From contig NZ_CP065581.1 of the NCBI RefSeq assembly GCF_018389705.1, positions 30,001 to 62,000 on the forward strand: DNA of 32,000 bases, given 5' to 3'. Below are positions 2,493 through 20,772 of the stretch, in pieces; position 1 is the stretch's first letter; the number at the start of each line of letters is the position of its first letter. The stretch is from Mycoplasma mycoides subsp. capri (GTDB lineage Bacteria; Bacillota_I; Bacilli_A; Mycoplasmatales; Mycoplasmataceae). A program made the position numbers and the translations under genes. Under the pieces are notes generated by a model that worked only from the letters and a program-made list of their open reading frames with translations, was not told where the DNA came from and made no database searches.

Positions 2493-3875
2493 TTACTTGT
2501 CAATGCGTACTCAGTAACCTGTTTTATTTGAACCAACTCTTTTTAATATATTCTTTTTAACTAATTTACTAACTGCTCTTTGCATTGTTATTCAAGCCAT
2601 GTCAAACTCATCAGCTAATTCTGCTAATGATGAAATTTTTTCATTTTTATCACAATAGTTTAAAATATTTTCTTCTAAAGAAGTTAAGTTCATATTTTTT
2701 ACTATATTTTTATTTTCAAATTCTATATTTTTACTATTTTCATGAACACTTAAAAATTCATTATCAGTTTTTTTTCTATAAAAACTAAAAGTGAAACCAA
2801 AATTTGAAATATCATATGAGTATTTAATATTATTTTTTTCACATAAACTAAATACAGTTTGAAAACCTGTTCCAAAATTTTCTACAAGGTTATTTCTATA
2901 TAATGTAGTAGCTATAAGTGGATTCATTGGTTTTGATGAAATTTTACCTTCAGCGAAATTTGCTGGAATAGTATTTAATGGAAAATGACCAGGATTATAA
3001 ATTCTTACTTCACTTGGAAAAATAGATATTTCGTTATAATCACCACTAGTTATTCTCATATGAACAAAACTATTAACTACAATTTCACGAATTGCCTTAA
3101 CTGGAATTTCTGGGCGAGGCACTCTTCTTAAATCTTCATAAACATAAACTTGATTTATGTTTTTTAATATGTATTCAATAGATCTATTAATGCATTCAAA
3201 AATATTTCCTTCAAATCTAATATTATCAATTAGAGTTATTCTTTCATCTGTTAAAAATTTTCCTAGCTTTACAGTTATCGGTTTATTTTTTGAAAATAAA
3301 TAATAACCAGCATTATTTAATCTATTGTTTTCCATCAAGTCTAATCTTATTAAGGATTCCTTGACTGAATTAAAAAGATGAGGAAACTTTCCTAAATCAT
3401 ATGCTTTTCTTACATAGTTAATTAAAAGTTGTTCATCAACTTCATCTTCACCATATTTTGTTAATTCTTTTTCTCAAGTTAAGTTAGTAAATTCATTAGT
3501 TTGAAATAGTTTTCTAAGTTCATTATTATCAATAACTTGATCTTGTTCATCAACTCTTGTGTAATATTTTCCATATGCTGAATATGGTCTTTCAGTACCA
3601 TTTACTTCTACAGAAATATAATTTAGGTTGTTTTCTTTTAAAACAACAATATTAGGATATATATTTGGCTTTATATGATTTTTTATTTCATTTGCAATAT
3701 CAGTTGTTGATGTTTTTCCAATTTGTTGACCAACAATTGTTCCATCGTTTTTAACTCCAAAGTAAACAGATCCACGGCCACTTTTATTTAACATTCCACA
3801 CAATGAAATCACAGCTTCTTTTAGTTCTGCTGTACTTTTTTTAAATTCTACTTGTTCACCTTCTCTGCCAAACAT
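2493..3875 (-). CDS. COG2865-type protein (460 aa): N-terminal Schlafen/AlbA_2 domain, central HATPase_c_4-like region, C-terminal winged HTH. Putative regulator, often annotated as RecG-C-terminal-like.
   Basis: Track ORFs 3474-3875 and 2592-3338 are in one frame and are joined by TGA codons at 3471-3473 and 2592-2594; a third in-frame TGA lies at 2511-2513. The true stop is TAA at 2493-2495. The N-terminus is MFGREGEQVEFKKS...GSVYFGVKNDGTIVG, the AlbA_2 signature. The C-terminus LAELADEFDMAWITMQRAVSKLVKKNILKRVGSNKTGYWV is HTH-like. The RBS is AAGGGG. Confidence 0.75.
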
Positions 3876-3917
3876 ATATAACCTACCCCTTAAATTATCT
3901 ATTTTAATAAAGAATTT

Positions 3918-4056
3918 ATTATATCACTATTATATCTTTAATATATCTTTATTATATCATCTATATCTCCATTATATCTTTAATATATCTATAAATAGTC
4001 TTATTATATCTTTATTGTATCTTATTATATCACTATTATATCTTTATTATATCATC
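3918..4056. repeat. Right array of 13 tandem units of the same ATTATATCTTT consensus, in the same orientation as the left array
   Basis: Units begin at 3918, 3929, 3940, 3951, 3962, 3971, 3982, 3993, 4003, 4014, 4024, 4035 and 4046. Segment 3918-3961 is re-duplicated at 4024-4056. On the minus strand each unit reads AAAGATATAAT and so contains TATAAT. Confidence 0.85.
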
Positions 4057-8655: not shown

Positions 8656-8682
8656 TATAAAAAAACAGCTTTAAGCTGTTTT
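8656..8682 (-). terminator. Intrinsic terminator whose hairpin loop is the stop codon of paralogue A
   Basis: The hairpin AACAGCT-TTA-AGCTGTT spans 8664-8680. It is followed on the minus strand by a T-run (plus-strand A-run 8659-8665). Confidence 0.6.
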
Positions 8683-11600
8683 GTAATCAAGAGCAATAAT
8701 TCTATTAATTGATCAATAAGAATTGTTTTTATTTTTTAATAATTTAACTTCAAATTTAGTTCCTAGTTGTTTTGATCTAGTTGTATTTGAAGTTTTTAAT
8801 CTTATTAATTGATAATTAATTTCTTTTTCACTACTATTTAAGATTTTAGTTGATCAAGCATTTTTATCATAATATTTAGTTGCAATTTGATCTTCTTGTT
8901 TTTTAAGTTCTTTATCTTTTTTATCTAGTACAAAATTAAAGACATTTAAAATAGAAACTGCATCTTTTTTATTTTCAATTGATAATTCATAGTTTGGATC
9001 ACTTGATGATAATCCACCAAACAAAGTACCAAATACATAACCTAATGAATCTTTAATATAAGAAGTTTTATCAGGGTTTATTCCAAATAATATATGTAAA
9101 GGAGAATAAGATAAATCGTTTTTTAAATTAGTTCTATTAACAGTATAAGCAATATTTGAACCATTAGTATAAAAATGAATTTTATCTCAATTATAATATG
9201 ATTCTTTTGGTCTATGATTTAAGGCATCTTTTGATACATCACTACTATTATCATGAGTATCAAATCCATAAGCTAATGCTTTTAAAATAGTTTTTCTATT
9301 ATCTTGATCTGAAAGTTTATTGTACATAAAATCATACTTTTGTAACTCTTTTTTATATTCAACACCAACTTTTGTTGTTAAAGCAGTAAGAATTTTTCCA
9401 ATACTTGATATGTTTAATCCAATCGATCTGTTAGGATATTTAGTTAAATAATCATTAAAGTATTTAGCTAAAATTTCTAAAAGTTGAACTACAGTTCTAT
9501 TATTTAAACTTTCTATTTTGAATTGTTTTAATAATAGTTCTGGAAGTGTGATTTTTAGATCTCTTATTTTTGATATGTTTTCAAAATCTTGTATTTTTTT
9601 AGCAAAAGATTGAATTTTAGAATTTCATTTTTCTTTTATTGCTTTTAAATTTTCAAGGTTTTGATTTTTTATTACTAGTCTAATTATAGATAGTAGTGGG
9701 TTGTTATTATCATCAGTTTTTTGAAGTAAAAAATTAATTCATTTATAAACAAAGTCTAGTATTACATTACCATTATATAAACTTTCTGATAAGTTAAATT
9801 TCAATTCAGTTGAACTATTATAAATTTTTAAATGCTCTTGTAAATTATTTAAGTATTTTGAAAATTCTTCTTTTATCTTTTCTTCTTTTTGTATAAATTT
9901 ATTTTTTACAAGAGTTTGATTTACAGATCTAATTTTATTTAATAAAGGATTAATTTTATCTTTTGCAAATGTCTGTAAAATTCATTTTAACGCACTACTT
10001 TTATAAGGCATTTCTAATATGTCATAAACTTTTTCTATATTTAATAACACAACAGAAAAAGGACCAAAGACCTTAACACTTATTAAATTTTTATTCTCTA
10101 AAATATTTTTAAAACTATTAATAACTTCAGATATGTTTTTTACTATAATAGACAAATCTAAATTAATATCATTTGATAAAAAGAAAATTTCTTTTCAGTA
10201 TTTTGAAATATTTAAAGACAAACTATTTAGTGAAATTTGTACATTTTTAATAGTGTTTAAAATAGTTTTTAAAATTCCATTTTCACCAAATAATTCAATT
10301 TTTGCTGTAATACTTGCTAATCTTCATCATTGTCAACCAGCTGATATTTCTAGTGTGTTATTTTTAACTTTAACTTCTCATTCACCTAGTGGTTTACCTA
10401 GTTCATTAACTTTTGTTTTAACAATATTTATTATTTTTTGTTCAATTGTTTTTTTAAGAGATTCATCACTTAATGAATGTTCTATGAATTTTACTAATAT
10501 ATCTAATGAATTTGAAATTGTATTTAGTTTACTTTCAATTCAATTGATTAAATCAAAAATTAAATTACCAGTACCAATATTTGAAAGTATAGAATTTGAA
10601 TCATTAAAAATCTTATTCTTATCAAAACGTCTAAAAATAAAGTCATAAAACCTATTAAAACTATTTTTATCTTTTAAAACTTTTAAAACACCATTTATTA
10701 AAATACTTAAATCTAGTTTGTTTTTAGTTAGTGCTAAAAAATGATTATTGTCTAATTTTTGATCTAATAAAACACTAGGATCTTTTATTTCTTCATGAAC
10801 TGTATAATATAAACCAAAAAAGATTTCAGAATATAAATAAGTTGCTATATAAGGCATAGTTTTATCAATTAATTGCAGTGCTTTTTGTTTTAGTTGTTTT
10901 ATATTATTTGAATCAAAAATAAATTTAATTTTTTCTAAAAGTTTGTCTAAGTTTTTAAGATCTAATTGGCTAGTTGCTAGATCACTTAAAATTTCACTTA
11001 AAGAATCCAAACCTAAATCTGTTAAAACATAATCTAAAGCTTCAGGTATTTTATCTGCTTCTATTTCTTTACTAAATTCTTTTTTATTAGAAATAACAGC
11101 TGCTATTTGATTAATATTTTTAATTAATGCTTGTTGTACAGTTAAATTATTATAATGATCTTTTTCTAGTTGTTTTGGAGTTAAAATTTTTCCTAAATAA
11201 CTAAATAAATCTTTATTATTTTCAATTAGATCAGCAAATTTAGTTAATCCATTTTTATAGTTTATAAAATTAGGATCATCTCTATTATTTATAACTGTAT
11301 TTTGTATAAAAGATAATCCTAAAGAAGCTAAAGAGGGTGCAAAACCGTTTAAAAATTTTTCAAGAGATTTGCTTATACTAAATAAAAAATCAATGTTTTG
11401 TGGAGTAATTTCTCCTTTTGAATTTTCTATATTCTTATATTCATTATTATTTTTATATTGTATTTGTAAATTTTTATCTAATACATTAGTAGATGAACCA
11501 AAATAAGTGTTTCAAAGATCAGAAACAGTATCAGTTGAAGTTGTTTTAGTATTATTAGGTCGTCAAATAAAATCGTTACTAAACTCATCTAATAAAGATT

Positions 11601-11832
11601 TTTTTCCGATCTTTTGATTAAGATAATCTTCATTAAGATTTTCTGTTTCTTTTAAGATTCTAGATTGAACTGCATATGAGCTAGCTTGAACGTAGTTTTG
11701 AACTTTGTTAACTATTTTTTGTTTGTTTGAATCAACATAGCTTTTTGCAAAAATTCCAAAACTACTTAAAAAGATAGCAAAAACAGAAATTATAGCTACT
11801 CATCACTTATTATTTTTAATAAACTTTAACAT
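8671..11832 (-). CDS. Large membrane-anchored hypothetical protein, paralogue A (1053 aa)
   Basis: The 3162-nt code-4 ORF is in frame with track ORF 10540-11010. The ATG at 11830-11832 is preceded by AAAGGTGA. The N-terminal anchor is KWWVAIISVFAIFLSSFGIFA, with no lipobox Cys. The rest looks Lys/Asn/Leu-rich and helical. I verified several stretches codon by codon, but not the whole ORF. Confidence 0.7.
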
Positions 11833-11942
11833 TTGGTTCACCTTTAATTAATTACAACCAACAAACACAAATAAATAGAATTTATCTATTGACATTACTA
11901 CTATGTTTAATATAACACAATTTTAATTTTTTAAAAGTTTAT

Positions 11943-11966
11943 AAAAAAACAGCTTTAAGCTGTTTT
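11943..11966 (-). terminator. Intrinsic terminator with the stop codon in its loop, copy for paralogue B
   Basis: The hairpin is identical to the paralogue A copy: AACAGCT-TTA-AGCTGTT at 11948-11964, with an adjacent A/T-run. Confidence 0.6.
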
Positions 11967-14900
11967 GTAATCAAGAGCAATAATTTTATTAATTGTTCAA
12001 TAAGAATTATTTTTATTTTTTAATAGTTTAACTTCAAATTTAGTTCCTAATTGTTTTGATTTAGTTGTATTTGAAGTTTTTAATCTTTTTAACTGATAAT
12101 TAATCTCATTTTCATTACTATTTAAGATTTTAGTTGATCAAGCACTTTTATCATAATATTGAGTTGCAATTTGATCTTCTTGGTTTTTAAGTTGCTTATC
12201 TTTTTTATCTAAAACATAATTAAAGACATTTAAAATTGAAGTTGCATCAGTTTTATTTTCAATTGAAAGATTATAATTTGGATCACTTGCTGATAATCCA
12301 CCAAATAAAGTACCAAATACATACCCTAATGAATCTTTAATATAAGAAGTTTTATCAACATCAATACCTAATAAAATATGTAAAGGAGAATATGATTGAT
12401 CTTCTTTTAAATTAGTTCTATTAATAGTAAATGGTTTATCTGAACCATTAATATAAAAATCAATTTTATCTCAATTATAATAAGATTCACTAGGTCTAAT
12501 ATTACTAATATTAACTATATTATCACTATAATTATCATGAGTATCAAATCCATAAGCTAGTGCTTTTAAAAGAGTTTTTGATTTATCTTTTAATGGATCT
12601 TTATCATATAAAAAGTTTTTATTTTTATTTTTAGTATTATATTCAACACTAACTTTTATTGTTAAAGCAGTTAATATTTTTCCAATACTTGATATGTTTA
12701 ATCCAATTACTTTATTAGAATTTATAGATAAATAATCATTAAAGTATGTTGTTAAAGTTTGTATAAGTTGATAGATTGTTTGAGTGTTTAAGCTTTCTAA
12801 TCCAAATTGTTTTAAGAAATCTTCAGGTAAATTAATTTTGATATTTTTAATTTTTGTGATGTTTTCAAAGTCTTTAATTTTATTTGCAAGTTCAGATATT
12901 TTAGTAGTTCACTTATTTTTAGTTTGTTCTAGTTTTTCAAGTTTTTCATCTTTAAAAATAGCTCTTAAAATAGGTAATATTGAGTTGTCTTCTTTATTAA
13001 TGTCTTTTGTTAAAAACTCAATTCATTTTAAAGCAAAATCAGAAATTATATTTCCTTCATAAAGACTATTTAATAAGTTGAAATCAGTGATTTCTATTTC
13101 TTCATATTTTTTAATATATTTAGATAGATTTTCTAAATATTGTGGGAATTGCTTTTTTAGTTTTGTTGGATCAGTTATGAAATTATATGTTTTTAAAGAT
13201 TCTAAAAAAGTTTTAAACTTTTCTACTGCTGGTTTTATATCATTTTCAGCCCTTTTATAAACTAGTCCATTTAAAAATTCTTTATTATAAGGAAGAGTTA
13301 AAAAATCATATATAGTTTTTATTTCTACATCTGGTTTTCCAAAAGGTCATAGGGTTGTTAGAGTTTGAGCAATTGTTATATGTATATTCTTATTATCTTT
13401 TAGTAAAGCATCTATATCATTTATTAATTTTTGTAATAAAGACACTGATAGTTTATCTGAGCTTTTTAAATAAAATGTATTTTTTATATATTTAAAAAAT
13501 CAGTCAGATAAATAATCTACGAAGTTATTTAATGATTTTAAAATATTAATTACTTGACTCAATAATCCTGTTTGTCCAAATAAATTAGCTTTTAAATATA
13601 AAGGGGTTCTGATTCCTAAAAAACTAAGAGATATTTCAATTGATTCAGATTTGAATTCAACTTTTCATGTCCCACTATCAATTTTTGGTAATTTTTCTTT
13701 TATGAAACTAACTATTTTTTCTTGTATAGTTTTTATAATATTAGAATCATTTAAAGCTATTTCAGCAAATCTAATTAATATGTTTAATCCATTTGAAAAA
13801 CCATTTAGTTTGTCTTCTAATCAATTTAGTAAGTCATAAATTAAATTACCAGTTCCTTTATTTGAACTTATATTATTTAAATTATTAAAAATTTTATTTT
13901 CATCAAATCTTTTAAAAATAAAATTATAAAATCTTTCAAATCCTTTTTTATCCTTTAATATTACTTCTATTCCATTTAATAAAATACCTAAGTCTAATTT
14001 ATTATTAGTTAAAGCTAAAAATTTATTACTATCAACTTTTTGAACTAACAATTCATTAGGGTCTTTAATATGTTGGTTAGCTGCATAATACAAACCAAAA
14101 AAGATTTCAGAATATAAATAGGTTGCTAAGTGTGGTGTAATTCTATCTAATAGTTCTAAAGCTTTTGTTTTTAAATTCTCAAAGTTTTTTAACGTGAATA
14201 TGTTTTTAATTTTATTAAAAGTCTGTGTTAAATTTGTAGAACCATTTTGACTATTAATTAATTCACCAATAATTTCACTTAAAGAATCTAGACCAAGTTC
14301 TGTTAGAAATTTGTCTAAAGCTTCAGGTATTTTATCTTCTTTTACTTCTTTACTAAATTGATGATCATTTGAAATAGCAGCTGCTATTTGATTAATATTT
14401 TTAATTAAAGCTTGTTGCACAGTTAAATTATTATAATAATCTTTTTCTAGTTGTTTTGGAGTTAAAATTTTTCCTAAATAACTAAATAAATTTTTATTGT
14501 TTTCAATTACATCAGCAAACTTATTTAATCCATCTTTATAGTTTTTAAAGTTAGGTTTTTCTCTATTATTTAAAACTGTATTTTGTATAAAAGACAATCC
14601 TAAAGAAGCTAAAGAGGGTGCAAAACCATTTAAAAATTTTTCAAGAGATTTGCTTATACTAAATAAAAAGTCAATATTTTGAGGAGTAATTTCTCCTTTT
14701 GAATTTTCTATATTTTTATATTCATTATTATTTTTATATTGTATTTGTAAATTTTTATCTAATACATTATTAGGTGAACCAAAATAAGTATTTCAAAGAT
14801 CAGAAATAGTATCAATTGAAGTTGTTTTAGTATTATTAGGTCGTCAAATAAAATCATTATTAAACTCATCTGATAAAGATTTTTTTCCGATCTTTTGATT

Positions 14901-15113
14901 AAGATAATCTTCATTAAGATTTTCTGTTTCTTTTAAGATTCTAGATTGAACTGCATATGAGCTAGCTTGGACATAATTTTGAACTTTGTTAACTATTTTT
15001 TGTTTGCTTGAATCAACATAGCTTTTTGCAAAAATTCCAAAACTACTTAAAAAGATGGCAAAAACAGAAATTATAGCTACTCATCACTTATTATTTTTAA
15101 TAAACTTTAACAT
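11955..15113 (-). CDS. Large membrane-anchored hypothetical protein, paralogue B (1052 aa)
   Basis: The 3159-nt code-4 ORF is in frame with track ORF 13821-14597. Its N-terminus (MLKFIKNNKWWVAIISVFAIFLSSFGIFAKSYVDS) and C-terminus (...ALDYKTA) are the same as in paralogue A. Confidence 0.7.
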
Positions 15114-15259: not shown

Positions 15260-18200
15260 ATGAAGAATTTATATCTAATGTTAAAACAAGGGGTTAAATG
15301 AATTTTAAAATTTAAACTTCAATTAGTTGTAATTGTAGTTTTGACTTTCATTGCTTCAAGTATTTTAACAATTTCTTTTACTACTAATAAAAGATTAAGC
15401 TCAGCTTATGATCAAGTTGTTAATAACCAAAAATCGCCAAAATTTGACTCAACATATCAAATAACAGTTGGAAGTAAAGCCAAACCTGAAAAAGGAGATC
15501 CTTTATTTATTCCTATATTTGATTTTGTAGATAAGCAATATACTGGTTTTAAAGATGAAGGTTATGATAATTTTAATTTAGCTTTTAATGATATATACAA
15601 AAACAAAGACCTTTTAATAATAACAACAAGTTCACAAGAATTTAAAGATGCTTGAGCAAAGAAAAAAGAGGTTTTTGAGTACAAAGAAAATCTTGATGAT
15701 ATAAAACAATTATCTAAAGAACAAGAACAATTTGACTTTGCTATAAATGATGCATTTTTTAATACAATGGCTGAATTATTATCTAAGAATGATCCAGCTA
15801 TTAAAAATACTGTAATTGGAAGATACACTTTATCTAATCCAGATTGATATAAACATTTTTATAATAAAGAAAAAAATATTAAAAGTAACTGATCAGAATT
15901 TATTAAAGATAAACAAAGAATTGAAAATTTAAAAAAATCTAATCCAGATGATTTAAAAACTTATTTTTATTCATATTATGCATTTGAGTCACTTTCTCAA
16001 TATTTCTTTAAAACAATTCAAACATTTTTACAAAATAAAGATAGTGAATTAGCTCAACAATCAAATATTAATAAAGACAATATTCATAAATATTTTTATG
16101 AATTCTTATTTGGTAAATATTTTGATAATAACAAAGCTTCATATAAAGAAGAGTACATTGCAAATAATAATAATCTTTATACTTTAACTTTTGATTCAAC
16201 AGTTTCAAGCAATGAATTTAACAAAATGAATTTTTTAATAAGTTCAGAAAATAAAGAACAAAATTCACAAGATCAAAACTTTTTTAATGAGTTAGTTAGA
16301 AAAGGATTTAAAGGAATTTTAAGACCACTTCAAATCACTTATCAAAATTTTGGTGATCAAGTTGATATAAAAAACGTTGTTCAATATAGTGAAACTCAAG
16401 AACTAAGAGGTTTTGTTTCAAATTCAAATATTTATTCTCAGAATGTAAAAGAACTACCTGAAATATTTAAAAATAATAGTTTTGTAGATATATTAGCTAT
16501 GAATGCTGATCCGTTTGCAAACATTGGTGAAAAATCTGTTAATTTTTATACTAGTAAAACAAATGATCTTGAAACAACAGTTGCTTCAGATTTTCCAATC
16601 ACAGCTGCATTTTTAACTCATCATAAACTGACTGCTTTAGCTAATGGTTATGATTTATACATTAGACCTGAAACTATATTTAATGACCCAATTACTAAAA
16701 AAACATTTAGAATTGTTGATATTACTAATAAAGACTTTACTAATTACATAATTTTAGATGGACAAACTCCAAGTAGTGCTAGTGAAATAACAATAAGTAA
16801 ACAATTTGCAAAAGCTAATAAAATTCAAATTGGTGATCGTTTAACTTTAGGTAATGCTAAAGGATTAATTGTTACAGGTTATGCTGTTGATACATATTCA
16901 TTTTTTCCAACTTCAGATCCAAATGTTCCTTTACCAAAATCTGATTCTGGTGGTTTAATATATGCTGACTTTGCAACTATTAATCAAATTTTAGGTGATG
17001 GAAATTCAGCAACAGGAAATGATCAAACTTCAACATTTAATTTCTTTTTAATTAAAAAAAATAATTCTTTAAATATTAAAAATGTCTTTTTTGATCATTT
17101 TTCAGTAGCAAATAGAATCAGAGATAATATTTTAGCTAAACAAAAAGGAACTGAAATTCAAACATTTTATCAAGAACATGAATTTAGTAACTCTTGATAT
17201 TCTTTAAACTGAACTTTATATCAAAAAATTGCATTTTGATATTCATTAGCTACATTTCTAACGGCTAGTTTAATCGCTCTTGTTTCAGCATTAGCTGTAT
17301 TTGTTGGAGTTATTAAATCAATTCAAGCAAACTCTAAACAAATCGGTATTTTAAAAGCAAATGGAGCTTCAAGTGCAACTATTTCATGATCATATGTTTC
17401 ATATGCTGTGATTTTAGTTTTTATAGCAATACCTTTAGGTTGAATGGCTGGAACAATGTTACAAGTTCCATTTGTTGCTATTTTTAAAGATTATTTTAGT
17501 TTTAAGACAAATGTATTAATTTATGATTGATTAGCTCCTTTAATATCTATTATTATTTTTGGAGTTTTAATTGGAGTATTTTCATTTTTAGTTGCTTTAT
17601 TTCATATTAAAAAACCAGTTCTAGATATTATAAAAAGTTCTAAGAAATGATCTAAACCAAAAATTACAGATTGATTACATAAACGTATTTTTAAAAAACC
17701 TAGATTTGCTACTTTATTAATGTTAAAACTAACTGAATCTGGTAAAAAACCATTTAGTTTGTTATTAGTATTAGTGTTTGTTGGAACTTTATTTGTTTCA
17801 GCTGGTGTAGCTATTCCTAGTGTTACTAAATATGCTAAAGATAATTACTTTAAAAAAGTTAATTATGATAATCAGTATGAAATTTATAATAGTTTATCAA
17901 ATAGTCCATTAGGAAAAGATGTATTTAATTTTTGAAATGGTCATGAACAAATTGATAATACTTATAAAGAAATTAAAGATCCTAGTGGAACTATTAATTA
18001 TTATGAAAATCCAAATAGTTATACTTTATCAAATCAAAACTCTTCAGTTCTACCTCAACTAATTTATAAAATTAATACTAATAAAGACAATGATTCTAAT
18101 AATGCTGAAATCCTTACTCCATATAAATCAATTATTAAAGAATATTTAAAAACTGGAGTTTCTAATTTATATAAAAACTTATTAGATTGAGCTTCATATC

Positions 18201-20647
18201 AAATTAGTATTTCTAATGGTAAAAGTATTTCAATTGGTACAATAGAACAACTTTATGCTTATATTTTAAATGATGCTGATTTAAACGAACGTTTTAAAAA
18301 TGACATAGATAAAGTTAAAGAAACTAATAATGTTACTCAACCTTTAACTCAGTTTGTTGGAGAACTTTTAAAGACTATTTTTAAAGATAAAGTGCAAACT
18401 ACAGGTGAATGAAAAGAAAAAATTTTAAATTTAATTTTAGGTTATTCTCCTTCATTTATTAAATCTTATTTAACAAGTGAATCTAGAAGAAGTCAATTTT
18501 CTTTTGGTTGACAAAAACAAACTATAATTCCACAAAAAGATCAATTAGCAACTATTTTTAAACCTAAATCAAATAATGTTGAAACTAATTATAGTATTTT
18601 AGGATTAGATAAAAATCAACAAACTTATAAGTTAAGTGATAAACAAAAAAATCAGTTATTTTTATCAAATAATCAAGTTCAAAAACTTTATCAAATTATT
18701 AATAATCCTTATGATAAAAATCAAAACAATGATATTTATTTAAATAATATTAAAGTTTATGATCACAAAACAAATACTTTAACTATTCCAACCATTGTTA
18801 ATAAAAACTTAAATTATAAATTAAATAAATTTGGTGATAATATCATTTCAAATTTATCTGCAAACAATATTCAATTATCATATAAAACAAGAAATAATGA
18901 TTTTAATGTTTTACCAAAACAAGCTTGAATATATGATGATTCAGATTATTTAAAAACTGAATATGTAAATAAACATACTAAATGAGAAGATCAACCAATT
19001 CAAATTATTAATAATAAAAACAACAGTTCTTCTTATGGATATGAAGTGGTTGAAAATGATAATGAAAAATACTACTATTTAAATCCTTATAATTTAGATG
19101 TTAATAAATTTACTCAAAGACAAGTTATAGATATTTGATCTAATAATTCAAATAATTCTTTAGTTGCAAAACAACATGAAAATATTGTTGATGAGTCTCC
19201 TTTATTTGGTGATTTTGTAGTTAATAATAATGGACAAATTACAAAATCATTTATAAGACCATATTATCAATTAAGAAACTTATTATTATTTGTTCCAATA
19301 ACTAATCAAGTTAGTTGAGAAGACTTTGCTTTATATGCAAGTGGATGAAGTGAAAGCGCAGAACACGGATTAGATATTAAAAGAGTTATTAGTGATTTAG
19401 ATAAAACTGATGATCATACAAGAAACTATAAATATCCAGCTATTAAAAAACTAAATGCTAGTTTAGTTCCACAATCAGTTAAAAATGGTTGACAATCAGT
19501 AATTAAAGATCTTAAATCTGATACAGCTTATTTAGCTATTAGACCTTATGATTTTTCTATTCAACAAGAAAAATGAGCAAATAATCATTATGAGTATTTT
19601 ATTTTAGATAATAATACTAAAAAAATTCTTGGAGTTAATCCACCTTCAGCTGATAAATCTATTCCAAATATTTTATTAAATTCAGTTCCTCATTTTTATA
19701 GAAGAGCTGTTGGAAAAAGAAAAAGTATTCCAGCAATTTTAAAACTACAAGATAAAAATGTTAGTTATGTAAATAAAGATTTAAAAATCAAATTACAAAA
19801 AGTTGATGATATTGATATTTATGGAAAAGCTTATGCTTTAGTTGATTCTGATTTAGCTAATATGTTGTATGGATTTGATATTAGTAGATCAACTAATTAT
19901 GACTATCGCCCATTTGATACTTCTAAAATTATTAAAAAAGGTGAGTTATTTAATACTTATAAAACTACAAATTGATTAAAAGTAAATAATAAGGATCCTT
20001 GAAAACAAGCGTTTATTAATCAAAAAGACACGTTTAGTTATTCACCACATTATTATTACAATACTATATTTTCAAATTCTAGTGAGCCTTTAATTATTAC
20101 TAGTTCAGTTTCATTAATTTCAGAACAAAGATTAGGAATTGCAATTTTAGATCTAATGAATCTAAGTGATTATAAAGCAGGTATAGTTGATGTTGATTTT
20201 ACTTTTGAAACTAAACAACTATTAAATCAAATAGCTAAAACTGCTATTTATATAGCAATAATTATAATTACAGCCATTATGTTATGTGCTTCATTATTAA
20301 TCATGCTAATAACTGATATTTATATTTCTCAATATAAATCATTTATGATAATGTTAAGATCAATGGGTTATACAAATACTCAAGTAATGTTTTACACACT
20401 TGGAATAGCTACTATATTTAGTTTATTAATTTCATTTATTACAACAATAATTGTCTTTAGTAGTACTTCAATAATTGATAAAGTCTTTTCAGCAAATGGC
20501 TTTTCAATTCCAATTAATGTATATTGAGTATCAGTAGTATTTTGTATTTTACTAATTTTAGTATCATTCTTTACTTCTTTATGAGTTTCAACAAAAAGAG
20601 TAAGAAATGCTGAACCAAGTACAATGCTAAGCGAAGTTGATGAATAA
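15260..20647 (+). CDS. Giant ABC transporter permease with two FtsX/MacB-type membrane modules (1795 aa)
   Basis: Track ORFs 15341-15655, 16226-17197, 17720-17935 and 20156-20527 all share the frame of the ATG at 15260. The stop is TAA at 20645-20647. The layout is TM1 (LQLVVIVVLTFIASSIL), a large loop, an FtsX-like cluster near 17220-17620, then TM (LLLVLVFVGTLFVSAGVAI), a ~780-aa loop and a second FtsX-like cluster at 20230-20600. A MacB-like segment is ITISKQFAKANKIQIGDRLTL. Confidence 0.8.
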
Positions 20648-20656
20648 TAAAAGATT

Positions 20657-20686
20657 AAACCAAATACATTGTGTTTGGTTTTTTAT
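20657..20686 (+). terminator. Intrinsic terminator after the permease
   Basis: The hairpin AACCAAATAC-ATT-GTGTTTGGTT is followed by a T-run. Confidence 0.7.
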
Positions 20687-20692
20687 TTACTA

Positions 20693-20722
20693 TTGAAAAA
20701 AAAAAAAAAAAAATAATATAAT
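20693..20722 (+). promoter_or_regulatory. Promoter whose -35/-10 spacer is a poly(A) tract
   Basis: TTGAAA (20693-20698) and TATAAT (20717-20722) are separated by 18 nt. An uninterrupted run of 18 A spans 20696-20713. AGGAG lies before the ATG at 20773. Confidence 0.6.
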
Positions 20723-20772
20723 TTGCATACTATAAAAAATGTTTTTCAAATAAGTAATCAGGAGTAAATTTA

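Follow-up and report, generated by a model that had tools for sequence, protein, structure and literature searches.

A polymorphic poly(A) tract between the promoter hexamers of a DUF285 surface-protein gene of Mycoplasma mycoides subsp. capri: a candidate phase-variation switch

Can the length of one homopolymer decide whether a mycoplasma displays a surface protein? This question is raised by a 32-kb stretch of the Mycoplasma mycoides subsp. capri genome (positions 30,001 to 62,000 of contig NZ_CP065581.1; hereafter the window), in which 18 consecutive A's are placed between a TTGAAA and a TATAAT hexamer, directly 5' of a gene for a DUF285-family protein. The window belongs to the M. mycoides cluster, has a GC content of 24% and is readable only with genetic code 4, where UGA encodes Trp. 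A first-pass annotation had put this promoter forward as a candidate phase-variation switch. Our analysis supported the candidacy in silico through the variation of the tract among strains and lineages, the stability of control runs and the recurrence of the same layout on paralogous genes. We consider it likely that the A18 tract is a promoter-spacer contingency locus, which would switch the expression of the DUF285/PARCEL protein by changing the -35/-10 spacing.

The first-pass annotation had described two hexamers separated by 18 nucleotides (nt) of nearly pure A, and an uninterrupted run of 18 A's. The coordinates and the counts proved exact when the sequence was read again and the positions were checked. 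The spacer (20699-20716) is A at 15 of its 18 positions, and a TAA (20714-20716) joins the run to TATAAT. Since half of the -35 hexamer and all but three positions of the spacer belong to the tract, the count of A's is at the same time the -35/-10 spacing. TATAAT is followed after 37 nt by the ribosome-binding site AGGAG and after 50 nt by the ATG, which lies 59 nt from the end of the tract. The terminator of the preceding gene, TTGAAA, A18, TATAAT, AGGAG and ATG are all packed into 125 nt.

A homopolymer of this length is beyond chance. It is the sole A/T run longer than 8 nt in the 32 kb, the next longest being 8 nt, and a first-order Markov model gives an expectation of 0.002 A-runs of at least 18 nt for the window.

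The tract was compared with 18 syntenic M. mycoides loci, in which the gene order FtsX-domain gene, DUF285 gene, 2-hydroxyacid dehydrogenase gene is kept. These loci were taken through representatives and members of the orthologous-protein clusters, and all tract lengths are assembly consensus calls. TTGAAA and TATAAT were identical in 18/18 loci. Length heterogeneity among strains or clonal lineages had been named beforehand as the first check on the switch proposal, and it was found here: with the hexamers constant, the 18 loci carried nine tract states (A5, A8, A10, A15, A7TA7, A16, A17, A18 and A19). The A18 of the window recurred in GCA_000339035.1 and CP065579. A17 was present in CP065577, A19 in JAUYZC01, A10 in strain 95010 (FQ377874), A8 in CP068010 and A5 in the draft assembly GCA_000590435.1. 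Two independent Logan assemblies showed an interrupted A7-T-A7. Seven GM12-derived genomes (LS4835xx) had A16, and A15 was found in JCVI-syn1.0 (CP002027) and in the Logan assembly SRR15032653. Tract length equals spacer length in every allele except A8, whose linker is TA and whose spacer is 7 nt.

The variation was concentrated in the tract. Nineteen other A/T runs of 6-7 nt within 4.2 kb served as a control; they were invariant or differed by a single lineage-specific step, whereas the tract took seven states in the eight assemblies compared. Apart from the tract, the only intergenic indels were two lineage-specific differences: depending on the strain, the T-run of the upstream terminator (20679-20684) is either T6 or T7, and the leader at 20734-20739 has either A6-TG or A6-TTG. 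CP068010 and JAUYZC01 share a divergent coding allele, whose protein is about 62% identical to that of the window, yet their tracts are A8 and A19. Tract length therefore does not follow phylogeny.

Two comparisons concern closely related genomes. GCA_000590435.1 and GCA_000339035.1 match the window identically over 4.2 kb, and the one gap event, in the former, is the tract itself (A5 versus A18). Either one stock has truly lost 13 nt, or the run was collapsed during assembly. Within the GM12 lineage, the derivatives have A16, whereas JCVI-syn1.0 and one Logan assembly have A15. The pairs 18 versus 5 in the strain background of the window and 15 versus 16 in GM12 are no more than suggestive of frequent, reversible switching within a clone.

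The sequences around the tract differ strongly in their conservation. When the tract is left out, strains share 94-99% identity in the intergenic region, about the level of the last 600 nt of the FtsX-domain gene (98%), and the promoter region keeps 95-98%. The DUF285 coding sequence (window 20773-21969) falls to 72-76% nt identity in two strains, CP068010 and JAUYZC01, and the part encoding the C-terminal anchor stays 93-95% identical where the rest diverges. At the sequence level, this is the pattern of a diversifying ectodomain under the control of a conserved expression cassette. The confinement of the divergence to the ectodomain points to diversifying selection or allelic replacement. 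The M. leachii ortholog is a pseudogene, found only as six short fragments of 39-245 amino acids (aa), which fits a dispensable contingency gene.

The same promoter layout is found on paralogs. Three DUF285 genes form a cluster in GM12, and the promoter of the first consists of TTGAAA, an A18 run, C and TATAAT, with a spacer of 16 nt. The layout TTGCAA-A(n)-CAA-TATAAT precedes each gene of a tandem 'variable surface protein A' array in M. mycoides subsp. mycoides. Of the four strains, two have n = 18, one has 13/14 and one has 20/21, and the spacers are 15-22 nt. These genes are near-identical, encode 405 aa and are present in two to at least five copies, depending on the strain. Two DUF285 genes of M. 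capricolum have this layout with A14. Across the paralogs the -35 at the same place is TTGAAA or TTGCAA, and n ranges from 13 to 21. Judged from these sequences, the tract of the window is one instance of a feature that appears family-wide among DUF285 genes.

A second homopolymer type was observed in M. feriruminatoris and M. capricolum, where a poly(T) run of 9, 16 or 17 nt stands 4 nt 5' of a TTGACT or TTGATT -35 (Table 1). Because this run lies upstream of the -35, it cannot act through the -35/-10 spacing. The neighbour of the A18-run paralog in GM12 has a plain TTGACA-spacer-TATAAT promoter and no tract, so canonical -35 boxes do occur in the DUF285 family. Close to the DUF285 cluster of GM12 derivatives, an (AT)13 tract (L027, 19621-19646) lies about 35 nt 5' of a gene for 278 aa; it is probably a TA-repeat promoter of the Vmm/Vmc type.

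Table 1. Features of the poly(A) locus in the window, and of poly(T)-bearing DUF285 promoters in related genomes
Feature	Position	Strand	Basis or remark
Upstream gene, 1795-aa FtsX-domain membrane protein	15260..20647	+	code-4 open reading frame; PF02687 FtsX on the orthologous product
Intrinsic terminator of the FtsX-domain gene	20657..20689	+	11-bp stem AAACCAAATAC / GTGTTTGGTTT, 3-nt loop, T-rich tail
-35-like hexamer TTGAAA	20693..20698	+	last 3 bases are the first 3 A's of the tract
Poly(A)18 tract, hypermutable element	20696..20713	+	sequence read, coordinate check
-10 hexamer TATAAT	20717..20722	+	sequence read; invariant in orthologous loci and paralogous poly(A) promoters
Predicted transcription start, A 7 nt after the -10	20729	+	placed by the usual sigma-70/sigma-A geometry
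Ribosome-binding site AGGAG, 8 nt 5' of ATG	20760..20764	+	conserved in most orthologs; one allele is TTAGGAGC
DUF285/PARCEL surface-protein gene, 398 aa	20773..21969	+	code-4 open reading frame, UGA = Trp
Weak terminator-like hairpin ATACAAG-AAAT-CTTGTAT, then T run	21972..21995	+	read from the sequence; below the scan's G-C pair requirement
Poly(T)-bearing DUF285 promoters, M. feriruminatoris and M. capricolum	L023 ~2390-2500; L024 ~890-995, ~3870-3972

How would such a tract act? Use of this promoter, dependence of expression on tract length and the rate of switching we infer, by analogy with Vmm and with the vlp genes of Mycoplasma hyorhinis, whose ON state corresponds to a 17-nt tract. 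Slipped-strand mispairing at replication would add or remove A's in 1-nt steps. Each gain or loss would shift TTGAAA relative to TATAAT, both in distance and in helical phase, and the altered spacing would change the use of the promoter by the sigma-A RNA polymerase holoenzyme. With a tract near 17 the gene would be expressed, and one step off, at 16 or at 18 as in the window, expression would be reduced or lost. By this analogy the window allele would give weak expression or none, and the loss of a single A would bring it to full activity. In A5, A8 and A10 the TTGAAA would no longer be aligned with the -10, and short tracts slip rarely, so these alleles would probably be locked and seldom revert. 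One surface antigen would thereby vary in its display in a heritable, stochastic and reversible manner, presumably in concert with switches of the same kind on paralogs.

A wider version of this proposal is put forward tentatively, as a possibility somewhat short of a probability. Most MyrrCad-anchored DUF285 genes of the cluster may each have a switch of their own, either a spacer poly(A) or a poly(T) before the -35, and a clonal population may show a shifting subset of at least 12 antigenically divergent PARCEL proteins, with the A5-A10 alleles phase-locked. Because the locus is kept with A15 in JCVI-syn1.0, such a combinatorial system could be dissected in the synthetic-cell chassis.

Several points weigh against a spacing-dependent switch at this locus. 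Promoter-like hexamer pairs are common by chance in DNA of 24% GC. With 11/12 consensus matches, TTGAAA/TATAAT ranks first among the promoter-like sites of 20000-22400, but the scan found 17 promoter-like sites where shuffled sequences led us to expect 20.4, and a separate scan of the whole window found 43 sites with at least 10/12 matches, mostly inside genes. The hexamer match was dropped as stand-alone evidence, since such matches occur at chance frequency, and the promoter is therefore identified by its position and its conservation only. In many mollicutes, moreover, promoter strength depends little on the -35 element. A length of 17, the nominal optimum, was seen in one assembly only. 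Several strains have A5-A10, which would be permanently off under a strict -35-dependent ON/OFF model, yet their gene is intact. Homopolymer lengths in assemblies are error-prone, and the A5 of the draft assembly is the most suspect call. Finally, the seven GM12-derived assemblies all have A16 here, and nine all have A18 at the paralog. The GM12-derived LS4835xx genomes do descend from a recent common ancestor that was cloned in yeast. As they agree, the assemblies give no sign of very fast switching and no estimate of the switching rate.

Part of this evidence would suit neutral hypermutability, in which the tract slips merely because it is long, and transcription relies on the -10 alone or begins at another site. 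The strains with A5, A8 and A10 keep the gene, the ribosome-binding site and the -10 intact, as if a TTGAAA at 17 nt were dispensable, and the A10 allele has by chance an alternative 4/6 hexamer, TTTACT, at 17 nt. The chance frequency of promoter-like matches and the minor part that -35 boxes play in several mollicutes also count in favour of this explanation. A neutral 18-nt homopolymer would, however, be unexpected at 0.002 per 32 kb in DNA whose next longest run is 8 nt, and a tract placed exactly between TTG(A/C)AA and TATAAT is found again on many paralogs in at least three taxa. Paralogs without tracts have full TTGACA boxes, and reviews report that the Vmm promoter of M. mycoides responds to the number of repeats in its spacer. 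We therefore regard neutral hypermutability as unlikely.

The tract could also work as a rheostat that does not depend on spacing, through A-tract bending, an UP-element-like contact or protein phasing, with graded rather than ON/OFF effects. The poly(T)9-17 runs 4 nt 5' of the -35 in related paralogs would fit this idea, since they resemble the poly(T) rheostat of Helicobacter pylori sabA as described in PMC4081817, and so would the spacers of the paralog arrays, which run from 15 to 22 and are rarely 17. At the locus of the window, however, the tract is the spacer, and any change of its length alters the distance between the hexamers; a spacing effect is the simplest and best precedented explanation, and no regulator or binding motif was identified at the locus. 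A rheostat of this kind is judged quite improbable here.

That the length differences are sequencing or assembly artefacts of a tract that is in fact stable is very improbable: several platforms do miscall long homopolymers, the assembly with A5 is a draft that in all other respects equals one with A18, and the seven GM12-derived assemblies are concordant, but the range of 5-19 far exceeds the typical errors of +/-1, two independent Logan assemblies agree on the interrupted A7TA7, finished genomes give 10 (95010), 15 (JCVI-syn1.0) and 17-18 (CP0655xx), and the paralog arrays differ consistently by strain (13/14, 18, 20/21). A switch acting through the -35/-10 spacing thus remains our preferred explanation of the A18 tract.

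The surroundings of the promoter were also analysed. The stop codon of the FtsX-domain gene is at 20645-20647, its terminator hairpin begins 10 nt beyond the gene end, and TTGAAA starts 12 nt 3' of the hairpin. This hairpin (20657-20681) was the sole terminator-like site found by the scan of 20000-22400 and the sole stable helix when 20645-20775 was folded. Every orthologous locus has kept it, and it shields the DUF285 promoter from read-through. Downstream of the DUF285 gene, the weak terminator-like hairpin suggests that the gene may be monocistronic. Two other roles for the intergenic region were ruled out. Apart from the terminator hairpin, 20645-20775 folded no better than shuffled sequences (z = -1.27), and no Rfam family came near its gathering score in the DUF285 leader region, which argues against an RNA element. 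The tract is not part of a bidirectional terminator, as the A run lies 3' of the T tail of the hairpin on the plus strand and there is no convergent minus-strand gene.

What does the promoter serve? The first-pass annotation had placed it just upstream of a gene for a membrane-anchored repeat protein, and domain searches bore this out. Read with translation table 11, 20773-21969 is split into fragments; table 4 gives one open reading frame of 398 aa. DUF285 (PF03382) matched aa 86-210 with E = 9e-34 and was the only Pfam match. Matches were also obtained to the PARCEL repeat TIGR02167 of NCBIfam (38.1 bits; cut-off 30) and to the MyrrCad C-terminal anchor (aa 351-386; 51.7 bits, cut-off 33). 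A low-complexity linker rich in S, T, N and E lies between the DUF285 repeats and the anchor. Hydrophobic segments were found at about aa 4-24 and 355-376 (19-aa windows starting at about aa 3-7 and 355-358). The only Cys is aa 79, with none in the first 78 residues and no lipobox, so the protein is not a lipoprotein; this status was ruled out for want of an N-terminal Cys. Membrane targeting is accordingly represented by the two hydrophobic segments and the MyrrCad domain, with no lipoprotein signal. From the N-terminal hydrophobic segment, the DUF285/PARCEL repeats, the MyrrCad anchor and the divergent ectodomain, the protein is predicted to be surface-exposed. Its best homologs come from M. 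mycoides and are annotated as BspA-family, MyrrCad, PARCEL or 'variable surface protein', and the UniRef name of the ortholog in strain 95010 is 'Variable surface protein'. A contig scan with the DUF285 protein returned only distant matches in metagenome-assembled genomes from outside the mycoplasmas, and no genome of the M. mycoides cluster.

Other features of the window were observed as well. Two tandem paralogs at 8671-11841 (-) and 11955-15113 (-) encode proteins of 1056 and 1052 aa, which are 64% identical and have near-identical N-terminal hydrophobic segments. The protein of 11955-15113 (-), the only one of the two that was scanned, had no Pfam match. Defence-like or mobile-looking domains were found in three genes: Schlafen AlbA_2 with HATPase_c_4 at 2493-3875 (-), AAA_14 with DUF4143 at 24722-26008 (+) and DUF3800 at 28226-29071 (+). 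They are scattered among housekeeping genes (ssb/rpsF-like, ftsH-like and tilS-like).

The ruminant pathogens of the M. mycoides cluster cause contagious agalactia and contagious bovine and caprine pleuropneumonia, and few of their surface-protein families are as large as that of the DUF285/PARCEL proteins. Should promoter homopolymers indeed switch the display of this family, DUF285 proteins would be unreliable vaccine or serodiagnostic candidates, comparisons of proteome or virulence between clones would need recorded tract lengths, and homopolymer calls in assemblies of the cluster would be biologically meaningful. Both GM12 and JCVI-syn1.0 contain the locus and allow isogenic A(n) variants to be made, which opens the prediction to a direct test. 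The conceptual gain is small, because the mechanism is well precedented in mycoplasmas and its association with PARCEL was noted in 2010. The main value of the locus is as a clean, testable example within a larger set of candidate switches on the DUF285 family.

Length changes between the -35 and the -10 are known from distant bacteria. In Neisseria meningitidis porA and opc and Haemophilus influenzae hif, poly-G, poly-C or TA tracts occupy this position, and their length sets the level of a surface protein, often in a graded way. These systems differ from the window locus in their Gram-negative hosts, their unrelated genes and the use of G/C tracts instead of A.

Among mycoplasmas, M. hyorhinis vlp (Yogev et al. 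1991; Citti and Wise 1995) is close in mechanism. Its A homopolymer also lies in the promoter between the -35 and the -10, with a variable surface protein downstream, and according to reviews, indels in the tract switch transcription ON and OFF. The proteins are unrelated: Vlps are lipoproteins with a signal peptide and a repeat region of their own, whereas the window encodes a DUF285 protein without a lipobox. Homology to the Vlp family was ruled out by the lack of Cys in the first 78 residues and by DUF285 as the only Pfam match, and the likeness is mechanistic only. The two also belong to different clades (the Hominis group versus the Spiroplasma/mycoides clade), and switching has been shown experimentally for vlp, whereas the window locus is known from its sequence.

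Vmm is a system of M. mycoides itself. It has a (TA)n repeat in its promoter spacer, and indels of the repeat unit control the transcription of a surface protein, as summarized in reviews. Vmm and Vmc come from the same species cluster, and hence have the same RNA polymerase, and they too have a simple repeat in the promoter spacer. Their dinucleotide repeat, however, gives 2-nt steps instead of 1-nt steps, and their products are small lipoproteins, whereas the window encodes a transmembrane-anchored DUF285 protein. Homology to the Vmm/Vmc family was ruled out, since the repeat unit is a single A and the 398-aa product is not a lipoprotein. Thiaucourt et al. (2011) discussed poly-TA tracts and GC(T)7-20 motifs in strains 95010, GM12 and PG1, and cautioned that the tract sizes seen in sequenced genomes derive from cloned stocks.

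The nearest relatives of the locus were described in a sister species. Röske et al. (2010; PMC2996958, Additional file 7) tabulated a 5' poly(A) 'contingency locus VNTR' (variable number tandem repeat) for the transmembrane PARCEL open reading frames MCAP_0735, MCAP_0736 and MCAP_0738 of M. capricolum subsp. capricolum Kid, and entered MCAP_0737 with a '5' poly(T)'. The tracts were tabulated there, and switching was not assayed. This mixture of poly(A) and poly(T) matches the M. capricolum array that we fetched. Since these M. capricolum tracts were already tabulated in 2010, the switch idea is less new than the first-pass annotation had implied. Our literature search found neither an experimental demonstration of poly(A)-dependent DUF285 switching nor an account of the present locus in M. 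mycoides subsp. capri, and searches for slippage within a laboratory stock, in JCVI-syn1.0 and in work on GM12 capsule phase variation, yielded nothing relevant.

Like the window gene, the M. capricolum open reading frames of that table are DUF285/PARCEL genes with transmembrane anchoring, of the same phylogenetic cluster and with a 5' homopolymeric A tract. In the paralogs of M. capricolum and M. mycoides subsp. mycoides SC (MmmSC), the tract lies between TTGCAA and TATAAT, just as that of the window lies between its hexamers. The differences are in arrangement and in detail: the window gene is a single gene between the FtsX and 2-hydroxyacid dehydrogenase genes and not part of a tandem array, and it has TTGAAA...TAA-TATAAT, whereas M. 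capricolum and MmmSC have TTGCAA...CAA-TATAAT. In conclusion, the window contains a probable contingency locus of the promoter-spacer homopolymer type, a kind already noted for PARCEL/DUF285 genes in the sister species.

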